A DNA stretch of 64,000 nucleotides from NCBI GenBank assembly GCA_016839765.1, contig JAEOTP010000015.1, positions 98,282 through 162,281 of the forward strand, given 5' to 3'. Both the position numbers and the translations under genes were made by a program. Origin of the DNA: Promethearchaeota archaeon. GTDB lineage: Archaea; Asgardarchaeota; Lokiarchaeia; Sigyniarchaeales; SOKP01. Under the pieces are notes generated by a model that saw only the letters and a list, made by a program, of their open reading frames with translations, ran no database searches and was not told where the DNA came from. This document shows positions 45,584 through 57,143 of this stretch, piece by piece; the stretch's first letter is position 1; each line of letters starts with the position of its first letter.

Positions 45584-46600
45584 GTGAAAAAATGGAAATC
45601 ATATTTGAACTCAGATCCAATTGATTGGTTATTAGAAGAAAATAATCCTTCAGTTCGATACTTTACGCTAACAGATATTTTAGATAAGGATCAGAACGAT
45701 GATGAGGTTAAAGAAGCACAAGAAAAAATTATGGCTGAAGGTATTGTTCCCAAAATTTTAAACAAGCAAAAAACTGGGGGATATTGGGAAACTGCCGAAA
45801 ATTTTTATATTAGAACAAAATATAAAGGAACAATATGGCAGTTCATAGTATTATCTGAACTTCATGCTGATAGTAATGATGAAAAGATTCAGAAAACTTG
45901 TGAATTTATCCTTCAGAATTCTCAAGATAAGTTAAGTGGAGCATTTGCTTATTATAGTGGAGAAAATGGTGGTGATCATAATAAAGTATTAGCTTGTTTA
46001 ACCGGTAATATGCTCTGGAGTTTGATTAGATTTGGATATTTGGGGGATTCTAGAATTCAAAAAGGGATAGACTGGATTACTAAATATCAACGCTTCGATG
46101 ATGGTGGAAAAAGGCCTCCAGAAGAATGGCCTTATAATGTAGGCTCTAAGAAAGGTGAAGCTTGTTGGGGAACACACACATGTCATATGGCGGTTGTAAA
46201 AAATCTAAAGGCACTAGCGGAGATACCCCCAGATAAAAGATCATATGACCTAAGAGGTACAATTAATAAAGCTGCTGAATACATGCTTAATCATCATGTT
46301 TATAAGCAAAGTCATAATTTGGATGCTGTTGCGAAGCAGCAATGGGTTCAATTTGGTTTTCCTTTATTTTGGAAAATCGATGCTTTAGAAGTTTTAGATA
46401 TCTTAACAAAAATAGGATTTAAAGATGATAGAATGAAAGAAGCCATTGATTTAATTGTATCTAAGCAAAATGAGAATAGTCGATGGATATTAGAGAAATC
46501 TTTTAATGGACGAATGCAAGCAAATATCGAACAAAAAGGAAAGGAAAGTAAATGGATTACACTTTTTGCCTTAAGAGTTTTAAAACGATTTTATAGTTGA
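45584..46600 (+). CDS. Alpha/alpha-toroid (prenyltransferase/squalene cyclase repeat-like) protein
   Basis: DWLLEENNPSVRY, QKTGGYW, QRFDDG, FGFP, ESKWITL. Confidence 0.75.
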   Translation: MKKWKSYLNSDPIDWLLEENNPSVRYFTLTDILDKDQNDDEVKEAQEKIMAEGIVPKILNKQKTGGYWETAENFYIRTKYKGTIWQFIVLSELHADSNDEKIQKTCEFILQNSQDKLSGAFAYYSGENGGDHNKVLACLTGNMLWSLIRFGYLGDSRIQKGIDWITKYQRFDDGGKRPPEEWPYNVGSKKGEACWGTHTCHMAVVKNLKALAEIPPDKRSYDLRGTINKAAEYMLNHHVYKQSHNLDAVAKQQWVQFGFPLFWKIDALEVLDILTKIGFKDDRMKEAIDLIVSKQNENSRWILEKSFNGRMQANIEQKGKESKWITLFALRVLKRFYS

Positions 46601-46638
46601 AATAAATTTTTAAAAACAAAAGGATAAGTGGAGATAAA

Positions 46639-47067
46639 ATGGTTGATAATAATTTAGCAGCGCCCTGCGGTATATTTTGCGGTGCTTGCAGGCAATACCT
46701 CCTCTGGAAAAAAGACTTATTAGAAGAAAGAGGGTATAAAATAGGTTGTAAAGGGTGTCGAATAAGGAATAAAAATTGTGTTTTTATAAGAAAAGATTGT
46801 TCTGCATTAAGAAAAAAAGAATTAGAATTTTGTTATGAATGTGATAGCTTTCCTTGTCAAAAGTTACAAAAAATGGATAATCTTTATCAAGAAAGGTATT
46901 CTGTCAATATGGTTAATAATTTAAAAAGGATTGAAGAAATTGGAGTCGAATTGTGGCTCCAAGAGCAAGAAAAACTCTATTCATGCCCAAAATGTAAGGG
47001 CGAAATTTGCATTCATGATGCGGAATGCTATGATTGTGGTAATAAAATTAATCCAAATATAAAGTAG
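46639..47067 (+). CDS. DUF3795 Cys-rich metal-binding protein
   Basis: APCGIFCGAC, CKGC, FCYECDSFPC, CPKC...CYDC. Confidence 0.88.
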   Translation: MVDNNLAAPCGIFCGACRQYLLWKKDLLEERGYKIGCKGCRIRNKNCVFIRKDCSALRKKELEFCYECDSFPCQKLQKMDNLYQERYSVNMVNNLKRIEEIGVELWLQEQEKLYSCPKCKGEICIHDAECYDCGNKINPNIK

Positions 47068-47078
47068 AAGGGAAAAAA

Positions 47079-48248
47079 ATGGTTAGATTAGTAATAGATG
47101 ATTTTAAACATATGGCCGGTGCAAATTGCCAGACTTCAAGTTTAAGAAAATTACTTGCGTATTATGGCATTGAGCTTTCCGAACCAATGATAATTGGATT
47201 GTGTTCGGGGTTGGGTTTTTTCTATTTTTACATGAAAAGAATGCCCTTTCCAATGGTGTTAGGATTGGCAGTTAAGAAAACCGAGGTTTTTGAAAGAGTT
47301 TTAAGCATTCTGGGAGGAAGTGTAAAAGTTACAGAAACAGCATCTGAAAATGCTGCCCATAATAATTTAATTGCATTATTAGAGAAAGGTCAACCCGCTA
47401 TAACATTTGTTGATTTTGCATACTTACCTTTCTTTTTTGCAGAGGGCACTCCCATCCCTAATGAACAATCGGGTCATTTTGGTGCCCATACATTTGTAAC
47501 ATATGGAATTGATGAGGAAAAAAATGAAGCTTATATCTCCGATCGATATGCTAATCCTCATATAATGTCCTATGAGCAATTAAAGGCAGCAAGGGGTAGC
47601 AAATACGCACCTTTTCCAGCCAAGAATAAATTAGTTGAGTTAAGCTTACCAAAAAAAGTTAAGAATTTAAAAGAAATTATTCACACTGCTATAAAGGCTA
47701 ATGTGAATTATATGTACAATCCTCCAATCCGTAATATGGGATTGACTGGTTTTGAGAAATGGAGAAAGATGCTTCCGACTTGGGCTACCGACTTTAACGA
47801 TGATAATCTATTGTTTGGTCTAATTTCTGTGTTTATTTACATGGAGACCGGAGGGACTGGTGGTGCAATGTTTCGAATTTTATATCGGGATTTCTTAAAA
47901 GAAGCAGGAAATTTATTGAATAATAATGGGCTTCTTAAAGCTTCAGATATGTTTGATGAAATTGTTTATAAAATTCGAGAATTAGAAACTATAATCTTGC
48001 CGGATGACCTTCCTAACCTTGGAAAATTAAGAGAATTATTCCTAAAAAGTAATGAGATTACGGAAAAAGGAGCAAGCGATTATCAAAAGCAATTGAAAAA
48101 GCTTGATGATGAATTTGAAAAGGTTACAAATGGAGCCAAAAAGGAAATAGATTCATGGAGAGACCGTATCCCCCATATAGATAAGGGAATTCATGAATGG
48201 GCAGAATTAGAAACTAATGCATGGGAAACAATAAAAAAATCAATATAA
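47079..48248 (+). CDS. Second BtrH-like peptidase with DUF4872 domain
   Basis: NCQTSS, SEPMIIGL, HFGAH, GTGGAMFRILY. Confidence 0.88.
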   Translation: MVRLVIDDFKHMAGANCQTSSLRKLLAYYGIELSEPMIIGLCSGLGFFYFYMKRMPFPMVLGLAVKKTEVFERVLSILGGSVKVTETASENAAHNNLIALLEKGQPAITFVDFAYLPFFFAEGTPIPNEQSGHFGAHTFVTYGIDEEKNEAYISDRYANPHIMSYEQLKAARGSKYAPFPAKNKLVELSLPKKVKNLKEIIHTAIKANVNYMYNPPIRNMGLTGFEKWRKMLPTWATDFNDDNLLFGLISVFIYMETGGTGGAMFRILYRDFLKEAGNLLNNNGLLKASDMFDEIVYKIRELETIILPDDLPNLGKLRELFLKSNEITEKGASDYQKQLKKLDDEFEKVTNGAKKEIDSWRDRIPHIDKGIHEWAELETNAWETIKKSI

Positions 48249-48267
48249 GAAGAGAAAATGTGTTAAG

Positions 48268-48939
48268 ATGTCACTAGATATTTTGAAAGAATTGGATGTT
48301 GAAAAAATGCGAGAGGTCTTTCTAAAATATACAAGAAAAGCATTTGAAATGCTTCCCGTGATGAAAAATCTAAGTATTTTAGATATAGGTTGTGGGTCCG
48401 GTACTCCAACAATCGAATTAGCAAGGCTTAGCGATGGAAAGATTACTGGAATCGATATTGATCAAGCTGCTTTAGATAGATTCAAATCAAAAGTCGAAAA
48501 AGAAGGTCTCTCAAGTCGTATAAAAATACTAAATCGTTCCATATATAATACAAACTTTTCAGCGGAGAGTTTTAATCTTATTTGGGATGAAGGAGTATTA
48601 CATATCCTAAATACCAAGAAGAGTTTAGTGGAATGTAATCGAATATTAAAGCTAAATGGATTTTTGGTCGTAGGGGAAGTAATAAAATGGATTAGTAATA
48701 ACTTAGAAGTCTTTCCTAAATGTGGTTTTAATCTCATGAATAAGTTTTTATTACCAGAGGAATGTTGGTGGAGAGAATATTATTTACCAATGGAAATAAA
48801 GATCAAGGAATTACGTTCTAAATTTAAAAAATCTAAAGAGCTAGAAAAATTGAAACCCTATGAAAGTGAAATTAACATGGTTAAGAAAAATCCTAAAGAA
48901 TTTGATGGTGCATTCTACATTTTTCAAAAAGTAAACTAA
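48268..48939 (+). CDS. Class I SAM-dependent methyltransferase
   Basis: ILDIGCGSG, ITGID, LIWDEG. Confidence 0.92.
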   Translation: MSLDILKELDVEKMREVFLKYTRKAFEMLPVMKNLSILDIGCGSGTPTIELARLSDGKITGIDIDQAALDRFKSKVEKEGLSSRIKILNRSIYNTNFSAESFNLIWDEGVLHILNTKKSLVECNRILKLNGFLVVGEVIKWISNNLEVFPKCGFNLMNKFLLPEECWWREYYLPMEIKIKELRSKFKKSKELEKLKPYESEINMVKKNPKEFDGAFYIFQKVN

Positions 48940-48959
48940 AAAAAGGGATGAGTTAGAAT

Positions 48960-51464
48960 ATGGATGAGATAAAAGTTGTTGGAGCAAGAATCCATAATTT
49001 GAAAAACATAAATGTTAATATCCCGAAGGGAAAGATGATTCTTATTACGGGAGTCTCAGGCTCAGGTAAATCAAGCTTGGCATTTGATATCATATTTGAT
49101 GAGGGAATGAATCGATATCTTCAATCTATCGGCTTTCCACCTAAGTTTGAAGATGAGAAGCCTTTTGATTTAATTGAAGGTCTAAGTCCCACGATAGCAG
49201 TGGAACAAAGAACTACACGTGTATTTAATCCACGCTCTACTGTTGGAACTAAAACAGGAATTTATGGTTTACTCAGAATGCTTTATGCTACTGAAGGTAT
49301 TTTGATATGCCCTATTTGTAAGGAACCAGTTAATAATAATCTAGAATGCGATTTGTGTGGGATGGTCGTAGAAAGGAAGCAAATTAAACATTTTTCGTTT
49401 AATGAACCCTCTGGTATGTGCCTATCATGTAAAGGTAGGGGGTATACTATGCATATTACGGAGGATTTAATCGTTCAAGATAATAATAGAAACTTAATTC
49501 AAATAACAAAAGCAGGTTCAGCTGTTTTTGCTGATCAAATTCGCTTTGTTGAACAATTACCAAGATTTTACGATTTTGACATTAAGACACCGTATAAAGA
49601 TTTACCAGATAATATAAAACAGGTGTTTTTATATGGTAGTGGTAAAAAATTACCTTTTGAGTGGGACTCAAAGACATTTACAGGAATATTAGAAAGAGTG
49701 TTTGAAGGAATTATTCCGCATGTAAAGCGTGCTCTCGCAGAGTCAAAAAGTGCATATAGAAGACATAAAATTCATGAAAATTTCATGTCAATGAAAAAAT
49801 GTGAAGAATGTGATGGTTATCGAATAAATGAACAAGCTAGAGAGGTTAAAATCGCAGGAAAACATGTTGGTGAGCTAGCTATGATGACTATGGATGAATT
49901 GATAGTATTTTTGGAAAGCATTAGTGAAGAACATGTGAGAAGTCCACAAGGTGAATCAATGTTAGATAGTTTATTAGAGGGTTTAAAACGTATGATTAAT
50001 GTTGGTCTCTCATACCTACATTTAAATCGTTCTTTACCTACATTAAGTGGTGGTGAACTACAACGATTATCTCTTATGACTCATTTAGATGCTGGTCTTG
50101 ATTCTCTTATTTATATATTAGATGAACCCAGCATGAGTTTACATGAAAAAGAGAAGGAATCATTAATTGATATATTAAAAGAATTGAAAGATTTAGGAAA
50201 TACGGTAATCATTGTTGAGCATGATAAACGTTTTATAGATATTGCTGATGAAATAATAGATATTGGTCCAGGAGCGGGTGTTAATGGGGGTGAGATAGTT
50301 TATCAAGGCTCGATTGATGGAATAATAGAAGTTGAAAATTCTTACACTGGTCAATTTTTAGCTGGTAATATTAAATTACCTGAAAAACCCATAGAAGAAC
50401 GTAAGATTATTAACACAAACACAAAATTTCTTACAATTAGAAATGTAAAAACAAACAACCTAAAAGATATTTCAGTTAAAATTCCATTGGGAATGATGGT
50501 AGGTATTGCTGGGGTTTCAGGATCTGGGAAAAGTTCTCTAATATTGGATACACTAGTACCACTGATAAAACCATTTTTCAAAAGAGGTGCTGAAATAAAG
50601 CAAATGAAAAAGGAGAATAATAATGAAAACGAGGAAAATGATAAAGACCTTTTAGAATATTCTGGAATTATAGAAGGATGGGAAAATGTAGATGAAGTCA
50701 TTGTTGTCAACCAAAAGCCAATTTCAAGGGTAAGAACCTCGACACCTTGCTCTTTTATCGGGATTTGGGAAAAAATTAGAAATATATTTGCTAAAACTCC
50801 TGAGGCAAAAAGGAGAAAATATAAAGCGGGACATTTTTCTTATAATTCTGATAACGGAAGATGTCCTGTTTGCCGAGGTAATGGTGTTCAAGATTTACAA
50901 ATATCATTTCTTAGTAGCTTCACAATCCCATGTAAGGAATGTAAAGGTATGAGATATAAGCCGGAAATCTTAGAAGTTAAATATAAAGAAAAGACGATTT
51001 CAGAGGTGTTGGACATGACAGTAAGTGAGGCATTAGAACTTTTTAGATCCCAAACAAATATTTCCAATATATTAAAAATCCTTGATAGTATTGGTATGGG
51101 TTATATCACACTTGGACAACCAGCTCCAACATTAAGTGGGGGTGAGGCTCAGCGTATCAAACTAGCGAAAGAATTAGGAAAAGCACGTAAAGGTAATTCA
51201 TTGTATATATTAGATGAACCTACAGTTGGTTTATCATTCTATGATGCTGTAAAGTTAATGGAATTACTCGAACAGCTTGTTAAAGAGGGAAATAGTGTCA
51301 TTATAATAGAGCATGATCCTCAAATCCTTGCTTATACTGACTATATTATTGAATTAGGACCTGAAGGAGGACCAAAAGGTGGAAAAGTTATTGCTAAAGG
51401 TAATCCAGAAGAAATAAAAAAATCTAAAGAATCTATAACAGCTGCTTATCTAAGTATAAGTTAG
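48960..51464 (+). CDS. uvrA: UvrA-like ATPase, class II (DrrC/Ecm16 type)
   Basis: Two ABC modules (GVSGSGKSS twice, LSGGE twice, LDEP twice) and Zn fingers. At 834 aa the region after the first Zn module is short, consistent with loss of the UvrB-binding domain. Confidence 0.85.
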   Translation: MDEIKVVGARIHNLKNINVNIPKGKMILITGVSGSGKSSLAFDIIFDEGMNRYLQSIGFPPKFEDEKPFDLIEGLSPTIAVEQRTTRVFNPRSTVGTKTGIYGLLRMLYATEGILICPICKEPVNNNLECDLCGMVVERKQIKHFSFNEPSGMCLSCKGRGYTMHITEDLIVQDNNRNLIQITKAGSAVFADQIRFVEQLPRFYDFDIKTPYKDLPDNIKQVFLYGSGKKLPFEWDSKTFTGILERVFEGIIPHVKRALAESKSAYRRHKIHENFMSMKKCEECDGYRINEQAREVKIAGKHVGELAMMTMDELIVFLESISEEHVRSPQGESMLDSLLEGLKRMINVGLSYLHLNRSLPTLSGGELQRLSLMTHLDAGLDSLIYILDEPSMSLHEKEKESLIDILKELKDLGNTVIIVEHDKRFIDIADEIIDIGPGAGVNGGEIVYQGSIDGIIEVENSYTGQFLAGNIKLPEKPIEERKIINTNTKFLTIRNVKTNNLKDISVKIPLGMMVGIAGVSGSGKSSLILDTLVPLIKPFFKRGAEIKQMKKENNNENEENDKDLLEYSGIIEGWENVDEVIVVNQKPISRVRTSTPCSFIGIWEKIRNIFAKTPEAKRRKYKAGHFSYNSDNGRCPVCRGNGVQDLQISFLSSFTIPCKECKGMRYKPEILEVKYKEKTISEVLDMTVSEALELFRSQTNISNILKILDSIGMGYITLGQPAPTLSGGEAQRIKLAKELGKARKGNSLYILDEPTVGLSFYDAVKLMELLEQLVKEGNSVIIIEHDPQILAYTDYIIELGPEGGPKGGKVIAKGNPEEIKKSKESITAAYLSIS

Positions 51465-51600
51465 ACATATCATTCTTTTTTACAAATCTGTTTAATAATG
51501 CGCCTTAAGTCCAATTTGATTCAACAATTGAGATAATAATTTAAAAAGCCTCCAGTATATAAGAGATTAACATAAATTGTTCTTAATCAGGGAATATTTT

Positions 51601-52725
51601 ATGAAATTTAATAGAATAATATTATTTATTTTAGTTTTTTCTTGTCTATTCACAAAAATCAGTATTACTAACGGTGTTAGTACCCATTCCCCTAATCCTG
51701 TTCCTCAATCCTGTACAATATTTACAGCTACAGTAGGGGATAAGGTCTTTTTTGGAAATAGTGAAGATTACGATATGGAAGGAGTATATATATGGCTTAT
51801 TCCAAGTCAGGAAATTGACCCAGGAACCCCTGAGGGAAAGCAGCTAATGCATGGAGCAATATTTTTTGGATTTTATAATAATTCTTTTATAGGTGATGGA
51901 GTACCGCAGGGTGGGATGAATGATCAAGGTTTGTGTTATGATGCAAATGGACTACCAATCGCTCCCCTGAATGACCACCCCGAGCGAAATGATACATACC
52001 CAGAAATACACGTTGGGTTTCAATGGTTATGGGAATTAACTACTGGTGAGGATGCTATTGAATTTTTTGAAAATTATTATTTTGGTACAGCCATTGCAGC
52101 TCAGACTCACTTTGCTGATGCTACAGGGGATGCAGTAGTTGTGAGTGCAGGAACTGATGGAGAATTCGCCTATACGCGTATAAATGATTCAAATTATTTG
52201 GTTTCAACTAATTTTAACTTAGCAAATCCATCAAATGGATGGTATCCTTGCGAGCGCTATGATACAGCATGTTCTATACTTGATGATATTAACTCCGAAG
52301 AGGATCTCACTATTGACATTTGTCGGGATGTTTTAAATTCTGTAGCTATGTATCAAACCTGGTATAGCAATATTTTCGATCCTGTTAATCGTGATGTTTA
52401 TCTTTATTATCATCACGATTTTACTAAAGTTGTTAAACTGAATTTAGATGATGAATTAGCCAAGATTGTCCCTGGGGCTCCTGAAGTTCAATATTTCGGA
52501 TTTACACATGGTAGAATCTATCCCAGTGGGAATAAAAGTGGAATTATTGGTAAAATGATTCCAATTGCTGACTTATTTAAACCCGAGCCAATTTACAGAA
52601 TCATTATCGATGAAGAGACCATCTTAATAATCTCTTTGGTCGCAATTGGAATTGTTGGTGCAAGTTCATTAATAGTCTGGGTATTTGTTGATGAAAAAAA
52701 GAAAGCGCGTGATAAAAGAAAGTGA
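51601..52725 (+). CDS. Secreted, C-terminally membrane-anchored Ntn-hydrolase (C45/C59-like)
   Basis: Signal peptide, S|CTIF nucleophile Cys, GNSED, GGMNDQGL, STNF, C-terminal TM plus basic tail. Confidence 0.85.
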   Translation: MKFNRIILFILVFSCLFTKISITNGVSTHSPNPVPQSCTIFTATVGDKVFFGNSEDYDMEGVYIWLIPSQEIDPGTPEGKQLMHGAIFFGFYNNSFIGDGVPQGGMNDQGLCYDANGLPIAPLNDHPERNDTYPEIHVGFQWLWELTTGEDAIEFFENYYFGTAIAAQTHFADATGDAVVVSAGTDGEFAYTRINDSNYLVSTNFNLANPSNGWYPCERYDTACSILDDINSEEDLTIDICRDVLNSVAMYQTWYSNIFDPVNRDVYLYYHHDFTKVVKLNLDDELAKIVPGAPEVQYFGFTHGRIYPSGNKSGIIGKMIPIADLFKPEPIYRIIIDEETILIISLVAIGIVGASSLIVWVFVDEKKKARDKRK

Positions 52726-52799
52726 AACTCTAAGTATATCTATTCTTAACTTTTTTTTATTTCCTTTTATAAAAATTAAATTAAATGTTGTGATAAAAT

Positions 52800-53414
52800 A
52801 TGCAAAATCTAAATAAGAAAGAATTTGAACCTGAAAGCCTTATTAATAAAGCAATAGAAGATCCTAACATATTAGCTGAATTGATAAATAATCTTGTAGC
52901 TAAAGATGAAACTATTCGATATAATAGCCATAAAGTCTTATTAATTATAAGCCAGAATAAACCTAAAGTTCTTTATCCCCATTGGGATTTTTTTTCTGAT
53001 TTGTTAAAAAGTCAAAACAATTTTCATAAAGTCATTGGAATTCAAATTCTCGCAAACCTTGCCAAAATTGACACTAAAAACAAGTTTGAAGATATTTTTG
53101 ATATTTATTGTAATTTACTTGACGCTAAAAGTGTAATGACAGCTGGTCATCTAGCAGCGAATTTAGGCATTATTGCTAAAGTAAAACCGAACCTGAGAGA
53201 TAAGTTAACTAATGTATTATTAAACATAGACAAGACACATCACGAATTAGGCCGCAAGGATTTAATAAAAGCATATATTATTGAATCTTTCTATGAATAC
53301 TTTAATGAAATCGAAGATAAGGGAGAAGTAATTGAATTTGTAAAAGCTCAATTAGATAGTAAAAGTCCTAAAACTAGAAAAGCAGCTGAAAAATTTCTTA
53401 AAAAATATAACTAA
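52800..53414 (+). CDS. HEAT/ARM-repeat helical protein
   Basis: Helical repeats (DETIRYNSHKVL..., SPKTRKAAEKFL). Confidence 0.7.
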   Translation: MQNLNKKEFEPESLINKAIEDPNILAELINNLVAKDETIRYNSHKVLLIISQNKPKVLYPHWDFFSDLLKSQNNFHKVIGIQILANLAKIDTKNKFEDIFDIYCNLLDAKSVMTAGHLAANLGIIAKVKPNLRDKLTNVLLNIDKTHHELGRKDLIKAYIIESFYEYFNEIEDKGEVIEFVKAQLDSKSPKTRKAAEKFLKKYN

Positions 53415-53439: not shown

Positions 53440-53480
53440 TTGTCGCATCACTGCGACAATCTTGTGACAACATTTAAATA
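53440..53480 (+). promoter_or_regulatory. Actin promoter with inverted-repeat operator candidate
   Basis: TTGTCGCA-N4-TGCGACAA (53440-53459), third half-site TGTGACAA (53463-53470), TATA TTTAAATA (53473-53480). Confidence 0.6.
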
Positions 53481-53492
53481 GTCAAATTTATT

Positions 53493-53634
53493 TTATTATA
53501 TTAAAATTATATGCTGTAATTAATCAATAGATGTTAAAGTAGTTCCTGGATTTAACAATAATTCAATTCTTATTAATAATTCAATATTTTAAGTTTCTAT
53601 TGTGAAGAATTAGCATATAAGTTTGATATAATAA
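53493..53634 (+). ncRNA. Candidate structured 5' leader of the actin gene
   Basis: Nested helices TTATTATATTAAA/TTTGATATAATAA, TTATATGCT/AGCATATAA, CAATAGA/TCTATTG, TGTTAAA/TTTAACA. Ends just before the GTGGAGG RBS. Confidence 0.5.
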
Positions 53635-53652
53635 TTCGTGGAGGAATAAATT

Positions 53653-54789
53653 ATGGAAGAATTGAAATTTAATAGGGCTATTATTTTAGATAATGGAACA
53701 GGAATTTCTAAAAATGGTTATGGAGGAGAAGATCAACCGCGCTCGGTTTTTCCTACCATGATTGGAACCCCAAAATATGGAACTGTGATGCCTGATGTAA
53801 AACACTTTTCTAGAGAATATTATATTGGAGAAGAGGCAATGGAACTTAGAGGACTTTTGAATCTTAAATTTCCGATCGAACATGGTATTGTAGAAGATTG
53901 GCCTGCTATGGAAAAATTATGGCACTATACATATTATACTGACCTAAGAATTGATCCTTCAGAACATCCTATACTCCTTACAGAAGCACCATTGAATCCA
54001 AGACAGAATAGAGAAAAAATAGCTGAAATCATGTTTGAGACATTTAATGTACCTGCATTGTACATTGCAATGCAAGCGGTGTTATCTTTATATGCTTCAG
54101 GAAGAACAACAGGAACCGTGATAGATATTGGCGATGGAGTGTCTCATATTGTTCCAATTTATGAAGGATTTGCATTAAGCCATGCTATACAAAGAATAGA
54201 TCTAGCCGGAAGAGACGTAACAAAATATTTGAAAAGGTTGTTAAGACAAAAAGGTTACTCATTTACCTCAAGTGCTGAAACTGAAATTGTAAGAGATATT
54301 AAAGAAAAGCTATGTTACGTGGCAATAGATCCAGAAAAAGAATTACTACTCTCTAAGAAAGTTGCTGGAATGGAAAAATTATATATGCTCCCGGATGGAG
54401 AAACAGTTAGTTTAGGAATAGAGAGATTTTTAGCTCCTGAATGTTTTTTCAATCCATCAGTGATAGGGAAAGAGTTAGACCCAATTGATGATCTTATTGT
54501 AAGCGCTATATCTGAATGTGATGTTGACCTTCGAAGAGATCTTTATAGCAATATCGTATTATCTGGTGGTTCTACTATGTTTCCAGGTATTAAGGAAAGG
54601 TTAACAAAAGAAATAAAGGAAATGATTTCTGAATCCGTGGAAGTAAGAATTGTTAGTCCCCCAGAACGTATGTATTCAGTATGGATTGGAGGTTCAATTT
54701 TGGGCTCATTAAAGACATTTCATAGGATGTGGATTACGCGACGTGAATATAAAGAATTTGGTCCTACAATAATACACAGGTGTTTTTAA
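53653..54789 (+). CDS. Asgard actin (Lokiactin-like)
   Basis: [86 protein letters not shown]. Colinear with eukaryotic actin. Confidence 0.97.
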
Positions 54790-54857
54790 TGATATGGTTC
54801 AATATTTTTAATTTTTATTTTATTTTATTTTATTTTAAAAAAGGAGGTTAAGTAGAA

Positions 54858-56063
54858 TTGGAAAAAATTATCAACAGATTAGATAAATTTCTTACACCTG
54901 AATCTAGAATAATCTCAACGATCATTGTTGAAGGGAAGAAAAAAATTTGTTATTCATCTGATAATTGGGATATTACTGATGATATAGAAGAAATTAATTC
55001 TTTATGGGATTCAAAAAAACTCGGAGAACTTTTTATTGATAATATTAAATACAAAATTATACAAGTCTCATCTGAAAGACTTGTTGCTATGAATTTAGAG
55101 AAAAAGGGTAGTATCATTGGATTTAAGGATGATGAGAGGAGAATTATCTCTAGAATAGAACCTGGAGAAACTTTATTCTTAGGTTTAAGGGATGCTTCAA
55201 GAACTTTAGGAGAGCTACGTAAAAAAGACCCTTATTTAGATCCGCATACAATTCTAGGCAAAATTAAAGAGATTAAATGGGCTACTCCAAAAGTCTTACT
55301 CAATGACACTCAAAACTTACAAAGATTAGGTTTATTGAAGGTTGGTTTAACACTTGAAGAGGCAAAAGTATATTTGGCTCTACTTCAGATTGGTGAAAAA
55401 GGAGAAAAGGTCGGAAATCTTAATAAAAAGCTGAATATTAAGAGAACGACAATTTATAGAATCATTGAACGCTTAATTAATAAAAGATGGGTTGATAAAG
55501 TCATGGAACGCCCAACAGGGACAACGATTTATGTTGCTAGACCTCTCAATGAGGTTATTGATAATATAATTAGTGAAAGGGAAGATGAGTTAAATATTCT
55601 TAAATCTTTTAGATATATAATGGGAGAGAGCTCAGAAAATGGCTGGATTGATGTTTCAAAAGAGTATAATACTTTAGGAATAATTGGAGTGGATAAAGAT
55701 TGTGGACTTATTATATTTGAATATGATAAAGCTGTGAAAGAAGAAGTCATCATTCAAGCAGCTTTACAACTATCATATGAGAAACTAAAAGGACATTTAC
55801 AGCCTGATTCTGAAAAAGAAGAATTTTCAAATGCGGATTTGAAGGATATCAAAATCACTCAAGTTACAATTGATAATTACTTTGGTGCAATTATGTATTT
55901 AAAATTTAAAGAGGGTTCTAAAACAGCAAACAATATCGGAACTGATTGGATTGTAGCGGCAAAACACCTTGCAATACCTCTAGAAGATAAAATTTATGTA
56001 ATTTGGGGTTCAGAAGAAAAATTTCCAATATTATTGAGTATAATCTTAGTGAAACTAAGATGA
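54858..56063 (+). CDS. Profilin-like domain + TrmB-type winged HTH + C-terminal alpha/beta domain fusion
   Basis: aa 1-120 have the Asgard profilin pattern (YSSDNWDI, IDNIKYKII, ERLVAMN..KKGSIIG). aa ~155-240 read GLTLEEAKVYLALL...IKRTTIYRIIERLINKRWV...YVARP. AGGAGG RBS. Confidence 0.78.
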   Translation: MEKIINRLDKFLTPESRIISTIIVEGKKKICYSSDNWDITDDIEEINSLWDSKKLGELFIDNIKYKIIQVSSERLVAMNLEKKGSIIGFKDDERRIISRIEPGETLFLGLRDASRTLGELRKKDPYLDPHTILGKIKEIKWATPKVLLNDTQNLQRLGLLKVGLTLEEAKVYLALLQIGEKGEKVGNLNKKLNIKRTTIYRIIERLINKRWVDKVMERPTGTTIYVARPLNEVIDNIISEREDELNILKSFRYIMGESSENGWIDVSKEYNTLGIIGVDKDCGLIIFEYDKAVKEEVIIQAALQLSYEKLKGHLQPDSEKEEFSNADLKDIKITQVTIDNYFGAIMYLKFKEGSKTANNIGTDWIVAAKHLAIPLEDKIYVIWGSEEKFPILLSIILVKLR

Positions 56064-56094: not shown

Positions 56095-56559
56095 TTAAAA
56101 ATGAGGAATTTCGGGATGTTTCTTTGCCTCCTCATAAATAGGACCTTTAGCAATGAAACCAAGTGCCAAGCCACTGCCTCTTCCAACTAGTAAATTGTCA
56201 TTTATTTTAATTTTAAAAGCTATTAAAGTTTTTTGTGGAATTTTTATAATTCCCCTCTTGTAGATTCTAATCCAACAGTAATTTTTTTCTTTTATTTTAA
56301 ATAATTTTCCTTCTTCTAATCGGTGATTTATTAATTCAGGGAATCCTTCTAACATTTTTCCAATTGGACTACTTCTTAATAGACGACTTGAACTTAATCC
56401 AAAACCACCTGAACGTTTACTTCCAGACATTAAGATACCTTTTTCGTCTTCATTAAATTTATACTCAAAATAAGCTTCTTCTGGTATTATTATTTTACCA
56501 TTTTCCCCTACTTTTGACCATCCAAATATATATTTCCCACCTTTTACTAGTTGAGGCAT
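56095..56559 (-). CDS. Tandem AbrB/MazE-like swapped-hairpin protein
   Basis: Two repeats: KVGENGKIIIPEEA and RIYKRGIIKIPQKT. Confidence 0.65.
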   Translation of the reverse strand: MPQLVKGGKYIFGWSKVGENGKIIIPEEAYFEYKFNEDEKGILMSGSKRSGGFGLSSSRLLRSSPIGKMLEGFPELINHRLEEGKLFKIKEKNYCWIRIYKRGIIKIPQKTLIAFKIKINDNLLVGRGSGLALGFIAKGPIYEEAKKHPEIPHF

Positions 56560-56573
56560 GTAATCCTTCGTTT

Positions 56574-57143
56574 TTATTTTTCTCTGATGATACTTTTATA
56601 AAAAATAGATATTAATCTTTCACGTTCATTAGCAATTTTCTTTGAGACATCTAAATACATTTTATTTCTCAATTTCATTATTTTATTTTCCAAATGCTCA
56701 ATGACTTGATCAACTCCCCCCCTACTTTTAACCGTAAATCCTATTGTACGATATAAACCAATAGCTCCTAATGCATCTAATTTATCAGCATCAGATAAAA
56801 TTTTTGCTTCCAGAGTTTTAGGTTTTATCTCGTTTGAAAAAGAATGAGCCCTTATACAATGAATAATATTCTCAATATCCTCTTTAGGGAGATCAAAAGT
56901 AGCTAAAAAATTATTTGCTAGCTCTGCAGAAATTTCAGCATGATTTCTTTTAAAAGCTTTTACTCCTTCTTTATTTCTTCCAACATCATGAAGTAATGCC
57001 GCGATTTTCAGTATTTTAATATCCGCATCAAATTTTTTTCCTATTTTAAGAGATAAATCATATACTCTTTCAACATGAGGAAATCCATGAATATCATCAG
57101 ATTCGGAGTTTTCTCTCGCAAACTTACGAATTGTTTCCAACAT
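56574..57143 (-). CDS. HD-domain phosphohydrolase
   Basis: HGFPHVERV, ALLHDVGR, HS, DADKLDALGAIG. Confidence 0.92.
   Translation of the reverse strand: MLETIRKFARENSESDDIHGFPHVERVYDLSLKIGKKFDADIKILKIAALLHDVGRNKEGVKAFKRNHAEISAELANNFLATFDLPKEDIENIIHCIRAHSFSNEIKPKTLEAKILSDADKLDALGAIGLYRTIGFTVKSRGGVDQVIEHLENKIMKLRNKMYLDVSKKIANERERLISIFYKSIIREK

Follow-up and report, generated by a model that had tools for sequence, protein, structure and literature searches.

A profilin–TrmB fusion protein as a candidate regulator of a second lokiactin gene in Lokiarchaeia

Results

A second lokiactin gene is followed by a profilin–TrmB fusion gene

In the window (the whole 64,000-nucleotide stretch of DNA that was analysed), a gene for a second lokiactin stands directly upstream of a gene whose product joins a profilin domain to a TrmB-type winged helix-turn-helix (wHTH) and a C-terminal alpha/beta domain (Table 1). 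A conserved operator in the actin promoter hints that expression of this extra actin may be adjusted in response to actin. In this reading, to which we assign a probability of about 0.28, a one-component transcription factor would read the free G-actin pool through its profilin domain and switch the second actin through a BRE-overlapping operator, forming an archaeal loop independent of MRTF-SRF. The broader proposal is of a repressor that acts locally over the BRE and has a profilin domain in some kind of contact with actin; for this we see the chances as evenly balanced.

An earlier note on this DNA had described a full-length actin with catalytic Gln and His, a 68-nt gap, and a 401-aa protein composed of profilin, TrmB wHTH and C-terminal alpha/beta domains. 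The actin ORF matched Pfam Actin (E 1e-130) and contained MQAV and SHIV, the ORF coordinates gave a 68-nt spacer, and the three-domain architecture was confirmed. The same architecture was found in more than 110 homologues of at least 390 aa; with its single 401-aa ORF, the protein lies outside the size of canonical stand-alone profilins (~120–150 aa).

Table 1. Features of the actin–fusion cassette, with positions in the window
Feature	Position	Strand	Basis or remark
Putative operator palindrome TTGTCGC-N6-GCGACAA	53440..53459	none	By conservation; family consensus TGTCAC-N6-GTGACA
Third half-site GTGACAA	53464..53470	+	Lies 11 bp 3' of the right palindrome half; overlaps the expected BRE
Predicted TATA box of the actin promoter, TTTAAATA	53473..53480	+	Aligned columns +9 to +16 conserved 0.78–0.98
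Shine-Dalgarno-like GTGGAGG, 5' of actin ATG	53638..53644	+	Sequence
Accessory (second) lokiactin, 378 aa	53653..54789	+	83% identity to the housekeeping lokiactin on another contig (C55)
T-rich tract, candidate leaky intrinsic terminator ahead of the regulator gene	54805..54836	+	
Shine-Dalgarno-like AGGAGGT, 5' of TTG start	54842..54848	+	Sequence
Fusion ORF, TTG start, 401 aa	54858..56063	+	
Profilin domain, aa 1–122	54858..55223	+	'Long-profilin' subfamily
Conserved linker, aa 123–149	55224..55304	+	PYMxPxxxLGK...WATP
TrmB-type wHTH, aa 150–229	55305..55544	+	Recognition helix KRTTIYRI nearly invariant
Long helix after the wing, aa 230–255	55545..55622	+	Probably a coiled coil for dimerisation, as in TrmB and TrmBL2
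C-terminal alpha/beta domain, aa 270–401	55665..56063	+	Common to profilin-less TrmB paralogs

The cassette consists of two genes, often three with a small ORF of 65–70 aa, and was limited to one Lokiarchaeia family; it was present in 45 of 135 genomes, about a third. A spread across Asgard classes (Hodarchaeota, Odinarchaeota, Thorarchaeota, Hermodarchaeota), which record titles had suggested, was not supported: every full-length fusion belonged to the same family as the window, and one locus titled Hodarchaeota matched a genome of the same genus. The earlier note had allowed that the linkage to actin might be unique to this genome. Instead, it proved family-wide, with actin directly upstream of the fusion in 95 of 96 full-length loci; the sole locus without an upstream actin (L036) was also without the operator. 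Stress and resistance-type genes surrounded the cassette, and no other regulator gene recurred in it.

The N-terminal domain is a profilin

Sequence and fold comparisons with solved Asgard profilins bore out the earlier assignment of the first ~120 aa. Residues 2–103 matched Odin, Loki and Thor profilins by phmmer (E 9e-6 to 9e-5), and the fold of aa 1–122 aligned with Loki profilin-1 (5YED) over 122 residues (VIA Z 16.5, rmsd 2.5). When aligned by hhalign with the Loki profilin-1/2-type gene of the same genome, the domain gave a probability of 97.9. Profilins carry a three-strand motif in place of half the central helix of roadblock proteins (PMC10933270), and the predicted model has this motif as strands 57–60, 63–70 and 74–78 after helix 40–52. 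This insert, together with the higher VIA scores of profilins (Z 12–16.5, compared with 11.2 for the best roadblock), ruled out the roadblock, longin or GAF identity that the earlier note had named as the alternative.

The domain did not reach the cut-off of Pfam PF00235, and the genome's stand-alone long profilin was likewise below it. Identity was 35% to the 204-aa long-profilin subfamily and 25% to the Loki profilin-1/2 type. LCM methyltransferases and an unknown domain were further fusion partners of the same profilin module, and the neighbourhoods retrieved for these fusions contained no actin. A profilin-domain tree gave the fusion group a support of 65, and its signal was insufficient for rooting or for placing events in order.

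The fusion continues into a TrmB-type wHTH and a conserved C-terminal domain

The TrmB-type wHTH was recovered by PF01978 at aa 160–229, above the curated cut-off (44.8 bits vs 25.6). Helix 230–255 was present in the model and matched TrmBL2 (5BPD) structurally; this long helix after the wing is a probable dimerisation coiled coil. The first part of the linker was common to other proteins with this profilin module, and the linker was modelled at low pLDDT (whole-chain pTM 0.44). By simple pooled Nei–Gojobori estimates over non-independent pairs, the actin and all domains of the fusion were under purifying selection. The profilin domain was the most relaxed part of the fusion (dN/dS ~0.25, vs ~0.10–0.11 for the wHTH and C-terminal domain); the linker gave ~0.11 and stand-alone profilins 0.13–0.16.

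The C-terminal alpha/beta domain seen in the earlier note was modelled with confidence (pLDDT 86.6). Its best fold matches, weak ones to Mog1/PsbP-like folds (Z 7.2, rmsd 3.9, 104 aligned; Foldseek E 0.008), stayed within what a common fold arrangement would give, and a longin/uDENN-like domain was rejected, there being no such fold among the matches listed. An Atlas structure search returned only the domain's own family at TM 0.78, with all other matches at 0.43–0.58. For a sugar- or effector-binding domain there was neither a Pfam match nor such a fold among the matches listed for the model, and fold and structure searches identified neither a ligand pocket nor a family, and no clear solved homologue. 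Feature searches with this domain and with the small cassette ORF gave no usable match.

The linked actin is an accessory paralog

Sequence comparison showed that the cassette actin is an accessory paralog and not the universal, ultra-conserved housekeeping lokiactin. Housekeeping lokiactins were 99% identical among themselves, while cassette copies averaged 84%, and a 100-support branch separated the two groups in an actin tree that was a quick version with a long outgroup. Estimated dN/dS was 0.045 for cassette and 0.009 for housekeeping actins. Nucleotide-binding and catalytic residues were intact: DNGTG, Q137, GDG, H161 and GGST were invariant, and the Q137 and H161 equivalents did not vary across 60 cassette actins. 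The barbed-end cleft and the latrunculin site, which we take to be D157, R183, T186, R210 and E214, were conserved between cassette and housekeeping actins, so there was no sign of drug resistance. A toxin-resistant actin thus found no support, there being no substitutions at these assumed latrunculin residues.

A conserved operator marks the cassette promoter

The inverted repeat that the earlier note had seen in the actin promoter was confirmed, and it was conserved as a putative operator across cassette promoters. Within the window, TTGTCGC-N6-GCGACAA matched just once, and 100 shuffles yielded no match. The operator (consensus TGTCAC-N6-GTGACA) was found in 65 of 67 cassette promoters and in 0 of 20 housekeeping-actin promoters. 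Promoter alignment placed it over the BRE, with the last half-site ending 3 nt 5' of the TATA box in most of 63 aligned promoters. A sigma-70 promoter scan was set aside because its model is not applicable to archaea.

The exact consensus site occurred in 28 of the 45 genomes with the fusion and in 3 of the 90 without it, always as one copy. One of these three fusion-less genomes carried an apparent cassette promoter cut by the contig end. The window's own genome contained no exact or one-mismatch consensus site, and its half-site plus TATA pattern was unique. A PWM scan of this genome scored the operator at 12.7, second to another site at 13.6, and thus did not by itself single the site out strongly. 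The earlier note had proposed control of cytoskeletal gene expression generally. This was not supported, as the operator was missing from housekeeping promoters, the exact site was single-copy and the linked actin was accessory. A genome-wide cytoskeletal regulon was rejected on the lack of any exact or one-mismatch consensus site in this genome and the unique half-site plus TATA pattern. Since the operator marked cassette but not housekeeping promoters and its exact site occurred at most once per genome, the regulon appears to be local.

Profilin-less paralogs consisting of TrmB and C-terminal domains carried similar palindromes, of the TGTC-N10-GACA type, in their own promoters, and this links the motif to the regulator family. 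These paralogs mostly adjoined methyltransferase genes; the profilin module is thus found exactly in the branch that stands behind actin.

A run of at least seven T preceded the regulator gene in 61 of 81 loci, compared with just 6 of 45 between actin and the small ORF; the longest run in the window's own spacer tract was T5. Because an oligo-T run so consistently precedes the regulator gene, co-transcription of actin and regulator is uncertain.

The profilin domain is predicted to contact actin

A complex model of the fusion with actin scored 0.63, compared with 0.01 for the best control; of the solved pairs 58 of 80 attained the pass mark, and of the mismatched pairs 2 of 110, figures that are rough with author-made alignments. 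Runs shared at least 81% of contacts, with partner pLDDT of at least 74, and the modelled interface on actin comprised residues 166–173, 286–289, 354–355 and 371–374. This pass may echo the solved Loki and Odin profilin–actin structures 5YEE, 5ZZA and 5ZZB.

Conservation of the 20 predicted interface positions in the fusion was 0.40, vs 0.50 at random positions (P ~0.025). In Loki profilin-1/2-type orthologs from the same genomes, the same positions gave 0.91 vs 0.78 (P ~0.002). The actin-facing sheet stayed hydrophobic in fusions (I68 99%, V76 100%, M78 79%), and Q69, T/S71 and E73 were conserved. We consider it slightly more likely than not that the profilin domain binds G-actin. Phospholipid sensing, which the earlier note had offered as an alternative input, found no support; the KY-motif lysine was K in 68% and E in 22%.

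Discussion

Proposed mechanism and alternative readings

The regulator would dimerise via the helix after the wing, and the dimer would bind TGTCAC-N6-GTGACA over the BRE and block TFB/TBP loading, so that the spare actin is repressed. A TrmB site over the BRE/TATA represses by steric hindrance (PMC4706686), and it is solely the position of the operator that would point to repression rather than activation. We regard such a local repressor of the spare-actin operon as very likely. Given read-through of the T-tract, it would repress its own gene as well. It is most improbable that another factor binds the palindrome and that the fusion is merely a linked gene, since the exact site is single-copy and tracks the fusion, similar sites stand at the promoters of the paralogs, and no second regulator gene recurs in the cassette.

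Whether actin occupancy would alter DNA binding is another matter, and we consider an actin-responsive fusion possible at best. G-actin as a co-repressor is slightly favoured, in which case the spare actin would be switched on when the free pool falls; a role as inducer is nearly as likely. The inducer version corresponds to an unlikely reading, which overlaps with the main one: filament collapse would raise G-actin, and G-actin would release the repressor and so turn on a divergent back-up actin that tolerates stress or toxins, comparable to Chlamydomonas NAP1 (PMC6541019). The faster evolution of this accessory paralog, the stress-type neighbourhood and the frequent role of TrmB effectors as inducers agree with a back-up actin, but the assumed latrunculin residues and barbed-end cleft are the same in both actins. 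The C-terminal domain, which is conserved and also present in profilin-less paralogs, is the obvious alternative sensor. TrmB proteins normally sense effectors with their C-terminal domain (PMC4158304), and the fusion may tentatively be read as a classical ligand-sensing regulator of this type, with the profilin as a relaxed passenger or a non-signalling actin tether. The occurrence of the strongly conserved C-terminal domain beside methyltransferase genes, the lack of special conservation on the actin face of the profilin and the resistance-type genes around the cassette favour such a regulator. However, the profilin domain is retained under purifying selection in nearly all actin-linked members, its actin-facing sheet remains hydrophobic, and neither a pocket nor a family was found for the C-terminal domain. 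The chain might also do two jobs, with the profilin as a private monomer chaperone and the wHTH autorepressing the cassette, fixing stoichiometry with no allosteric coupling. The low-confidence linker and whole-chain model, the passing complex model and the local regulon are consistent with this arrangement, but we think it improbable, as the linker is conserved and the T-tract suggests low expression, ill-suited to a stoichiometric chaperone.

Novelty and meaning

Our literature search, whose coverage excludes most subscription journals, returned no published description of a profilin–TrmB fusion or of the cassette, and none of the regulation of actin expression in Asgard archaea. The cassette offers a regulator and its target promoter, a predicted 20-bp operator of which natural variants exist, a candidate effector and, in the profilin-less paralogs, a natural control, and the question is therefore answerable by work on the purified proteins. 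Should DNA binding prove to be modulated by actin, we would know of no earlier actin-sensing transcription factor from outside the eukaryotes, and the fusion would be convergent with MRTF-SRF. Even without actin sensing, the cassette presents a second lokiactin isoform, not described before and under its own regulation, and shows that profilin serves as a mobile module in multidomain proteins of archaea. Its restriction to one family and its frequent loss mean that little can be learned from it about the eukaryotic ancestor.

Comparison with known systems

In animals, MRTF-SRF couples G-actin sensing by a transcription regulator to control of the actin gene. The fusion possibly shares this logic, free G-actin being read by the regulator of an actin gene, as a functional analogy only. 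Domain searches detected neither an RPEL motif nor a MADS box in it; there is no homology and no nuclear shuttling, and the fusion is a one-component protein acting on an accessory gene, with hypothetical coupling. Among archaeal regulators, we know of no cytoskeleton-binding domain in CdrS. In the haloarchaeal CdrS-ftsZ2 system (PMC7439475), a transcription factor likewise controls a cytoskeletal gene, but CdrS belongs to the ribbon-helix-helix proteins and its target is of the tubulin family.

Stand-alone Asgard profilins (Loki profilin-1 5YED/5YEE, Loki profilin-2 5ZZB, Odin 5ZZA, Thor 7PBH and Heimdall; PMC8410842) share the fold, the NW/KY motifs and the three-strand, actin-binding motif with the fusion domain, and their binding surface on actin is the same as the one predicted here. 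In the fusion, however, the profilin is one domain of a 401-aa predicted DNA-binding protein and shows no special conservation on its actin face. The available part of a 256-profilin survey discusses only N-terminal extensions.

TrmB, TrmBL1/Tgr and TrmBL2 (PMC4158304, PMC4706686) have, like the fusion, a PF01978 wHTH followed by a long helix, and a palindromic promoter operator. TGTCAC-N6-GTGACA resembles the TGM TATCAC-N5-GTGATA, and its position over the BRE resembles that of P. furiosus TrmB at malE. The fusion differs in its extra N-terminal profilin, in having no detected sugar-binding domain and in serving a single actin cassette instead of a metabolic regulon.

Chlamydomonas likewise pairs a conserved main actin, IDA5, with a divergent second one, NAP1, whose transcription is controlled separately; NAP1 is a latrunculin-insensitive, induced, eukaryotic protein (PMC6541019). 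The cassette actin, in contrast, is ~16% divergent with unchanged drug-site residues, and its regulator is encoded next door.

Gene order and domains of the fusion regulator

The gene order put forward in the earlier note, an actin gene followed after a short spacer by a gene for a profilin-TrmB fusion, was present in the sequence. The window actin matched Pfam Actin at E 1e-130, and among solved structures its best match is the Asgard HC1 actin. The proposed TrmB-type wHTH was recovered as PF01978 at fusion residues 160-229, above the cut-off. Significant PDB sequence matches of the fusion were confined to the Odin, Loki and Thor profilins, all on the first ~100 residues. The profilin assignment of the N-terminal domain also held in fold searches, in which the AlphaFold model of residues 1-122 preferred Loki profilin-1 (Z 16.5) over the best roadblock (Z 11.2), with Foldseek concordant. 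These modelled residues contain the 3-strand motif, a profilin-specific, actin-binding feature (PMC10933270). The C-terminal domain had a confident fold, yet no clear solved relative was found in structure searches.

Features of the window and of related loci (L, locus; G, genome; C, contig; positions without a handle are in the window)
Feature	Position	Strand	Size or remark
Actin ORF	53653-54789	+	378 aa
Spacer between actin and fusion ORFs			68 nt
Fusion ORF	54858-56063	+	401 aa, TTG start
Inverted repeat at actin promoter	53440-53459		
Variable region	45584-53414, 56095-57143		
Small ORF, example	L021:4735-4941		
Downstream protein, example	L012:6250-6807		180-190 aa
Profilin-less TrmB-plus-C-domain regulators	L200:11139-12002, L019:8834-9745, L032:8470-9309, L037:7078-7959, L054:2483-3385		
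Long profilins	L189:5296-5904 (C91), L190:4653-5327 (C43)		~202 aa, ~224 aa
Profilin module + leucine-carboxyl-methyltransferase (PF04072)	L194:1290-2597, L195:3153-4460, L196:3447-4712 (minus strand)		
Profilin module + unassigned ~110-aa C-terminal domain	L193:4017-4793, L197:764-1534		256-258 aa in total
Housekeeping lokiactin and divergent second actin	L308:2620-6493 (G226:C48)		second actin 386 aa

A conserved, predicted operator at the cassette actin promoter

The inverted repeat described at the actin promoter was unique in the window and arose in 0 of 100 shuffles. Of 67 distinct cassette promoters, 65 contained TGTCAC-N6-GTGACA with at most two mismatches, 45 of them exactly; none of 20 housekeeping-actin promoters did. 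Its right half-site ends ~3 nt before a conserved TTTAAATA and therefore falls on the TFB recognition element (BRE). The window site is a compensated variant, TGTCGC-N6-GCGACA, with a third half-site 11 bp on, over the BRE. Exact operators occurred in 31 of 135 whole genomes, in single copy each, and a reversed control pattern in none of the 135. Fusions were present in 28 of these 31 genomes; one other site resembles a cassette promoter truncated at the edge of a contig, and the remaining two seem unrelated.

Assignment of the palindrome to the fusion regulator gains independent support from sequence comparison: profilin-less paralogs of ~290-300 aa, built from this wHTH and C-domain and in most cases divergent to a methyltransferase gene, carry related TGTC-N10-GACA-type palindromes beside their own TATA-like boxes. 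At the tabulated profilin-less loci (regulators of ~280-300 aa), the divergent gene encodes a SAM methyltransferase, the palindrome lies between two TATA-like boxes, and a cassette is often nearby. The cassette operator also resembles the TrmBL1/Tgr site, TATCAC-N5-GTGATA (PMC4158304). A TrmB site that covers the BRE/TATA shuts out TBP and TFB and so represses; one located upstream of the BRE activates (PMC4706686). Since the predicted site overlaps the BRE, we infer that the regulator represses the cassette actin promoter, with activation as the alternative.

Linkage to actin and transcription unit

The linkage to actin extended well beyond the window: of 96 full-length loci whose upstream DNA was long enough to judge, 95 have a same-strand actin 40-606 nt upstream of the regulator, which, as these loci are related, represents conservation and not 95 independent events. 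The sole exception, L036, also lacks the operator. About half of the loci, but not the window, have a 60-80-aa ORF between actin and regulator. It was seen in L021 and ~48 other loci (IKxIDGIPCI ... FTxxQxxKE ... VLxELKKKF), with no T-run found ahead of it; its 18 matches in 17 genomes were all inside cassettes, and Pfam and Atlas searches gave no match. Its product is a possible small partner that binds actin. In L012 and ~33 other loci, though not in the window, the regulator is followed in the same orientation by a gene for a 180-190-aa protein that has no Pfam match; this gene is a possible fourth member of the cassette.

In 61 of 81 loci, at least seven consecutive T stand ahead of the regulator gene, irrespective of whether actin or the small ORF comes before it; between actin and the small ORF, such a run was present in just 6 of 45. 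A strong Shine-Dalgarno-like sequence follows in the window and close relatives. This arrangement fits a leaky terminator that yields much actin and little regulator; a separate regulator promoter is possible.

In the window and related loci, the cassette is set in a variable region with genes for a UvrA-like ATPase, methyltransferases, DUF3795 and glyoxalase-family proteins, a convergent HD-domain gene, and an SBF-family transporter (probably Acr3) with an ArsR regulator.

The cassette actin is an accessory isoform

Besides the cassette actin, the source genome encodes another close actin on contig C55 (83% identical to it) along with three distant actins. Two close actins were found in most fusion-bearing genomes and one in most others. 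C55-type actins are 99% identical to one another across the family, whereas cassette actins average 84% identity both among themselves and to the housekeeping copy, and are set apart in a quick tree by a branch with support 100. Cassette actins are under purifying selection, but freer than the housekeeping actin (dN/dS ~0.045 vs 0.009), and keep the catalytic residues and barbed-end surface. Their separate branch, retained residues, selection and second close copy indicate that the cassette actin is a functional accessory isoform, distinct from the main cytoskeletal gene; the main lokiactin group is universal and the most conserved actin group (PMC9834061). Differences between the two are concentrated in the D-loop (G41, P45, K48), 196-203 and position 136 beside the catalytic Q137. 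Pro occupies position 45 in 94% of cassette actins, and Thr replaces Met at 136 in 84%, with Met retained in the window. A different actin duplication, without the fusion regulator, was seen at L308, where a short, possibly histone-like ORF and the divergent second actin lie within 1.6 kb after the housekeeping lokiactin.

Actin binding and possible regulatory logic

The fusion-actin complex model scored 0.63 (best control, 0.01), with contact agreement of at least 81% and partner pLDDT of at least 74 across runs; 58 of 80 solved pairs and 2 of 110 mismatched ones came up to this mark, counts that are rough with custom alignments. The modelled interface on actin covers 166-173, 286-289, 354-355 and 371-374, which we take to be the canonical profilin site. 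The model score may reflect likeness only, because Loki and Odin profilins have already been solved in complex with actin. Actin-facing strand positions stay hydrophobic in 117 homologues, with Q69, T/S71 and E73 kept. In the fusion, conservation of the 20 predicted interface positions fell below that of random positions (0.40 vs 0.50); in Loki profilin-1/2-type orthologs from the same genomes it was above (0.91 vs 0.78), a contrast that calls for caution on actin binding. Also against binding, selection on the profilin domain is the most relaxed within the fusion (dN/dS ~0.25 vs ~0.10). We put the probability that the profilin domain binds actin at roughly 55%.

Most likely, the fusion would repress a spare-actin operon by binding its BRE as a dimer, its profilin domain engaging actin. 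In the main rival, the actual sensing falls to the conserved C-domain, with the profilin domain as a tether or passenger. Actin-dependent control of DNA binding is doubtful. If the two were coupled, G-actin as a co-repressor, a top-up logic like that of MRTF-SRF, would be slightly preferred over G-actin as an inducer, which parallels the back-up logic of Chlamydomonas NAP1 (PMC6541019).

The individual parts are of known kinds. A search largely outside subscription journals found no published account of the domain combination, cassette, second lokiactin or operator. The cassette is real, conserved, undescribed and directly testable, and is a form of TrmB-type regulation; it would be categorically new only if actin sensing were shown.

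Origin of the profilin module

The fusion profilin is more similar to a 202-205-aa long profilin (C91; 35% identity), with which it shares W50 and the linker start, than to the Loki profilin-1/2 type (C67; 25%). Long profilins occur in most family genomes, the C91 type in 27 of 30 tested. The simplest history is that a wHTH-plus-C-domain regulator gained the profilin module in the actin-linked branch; the profilin-domain tree is too weak for ordering gain events. Stand-alone profilin-like genes number at least five in the source genome, and the long profilins L189 and L190 share a helical C-terminal tail. This profilin module also occurs fused to other domains (see the table). Because profilin binds near the actin C-terminus, actin carboxyl methylation by the methyltransferase fusion is a speculative lead.

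Distribution and decay

A protein search with the fusion gave 167 relatives; among the best 120 of these, nearly all were full-length and those named were mostly Promethearchaeota. Among 400 phylum genomes, the full fusion was limited to the window's family, in 45 of 135 genomes including the source (one copy truncated at a contig end) and 4 of 13 genera. The C-domain was likewise limited to this family, except for one genome with 11% contamination, and its profile matched only 33 proteins among 1.84 billion representatives. Contigs titled Hodarchaeota, Hermodarchaeota or Odinarchaeota (L003, on G259:C5; L004, L005, L011, L023) match genomes of the window's genus or family (compared by identity for L003, L004 and L005), so these labels look unreliable.

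C-terminal remnants without actin persist in three genomes (G225, G248, G200), and L008 and L044 carry a broken cassette actin. Together with the distribution and a mostly common downstream HD-domain neighbor (77 loci), these fit an optional, repeatedly lost cassette. Decay states at L199, L200, L201, L008, L044, L036, L101 and L108 comprise C-domain remnants without actin, loci in which the actin is broken and the regulator intact, a regulator that lacks both actin and operator, and actin-less regulators with a truncated profilin part.
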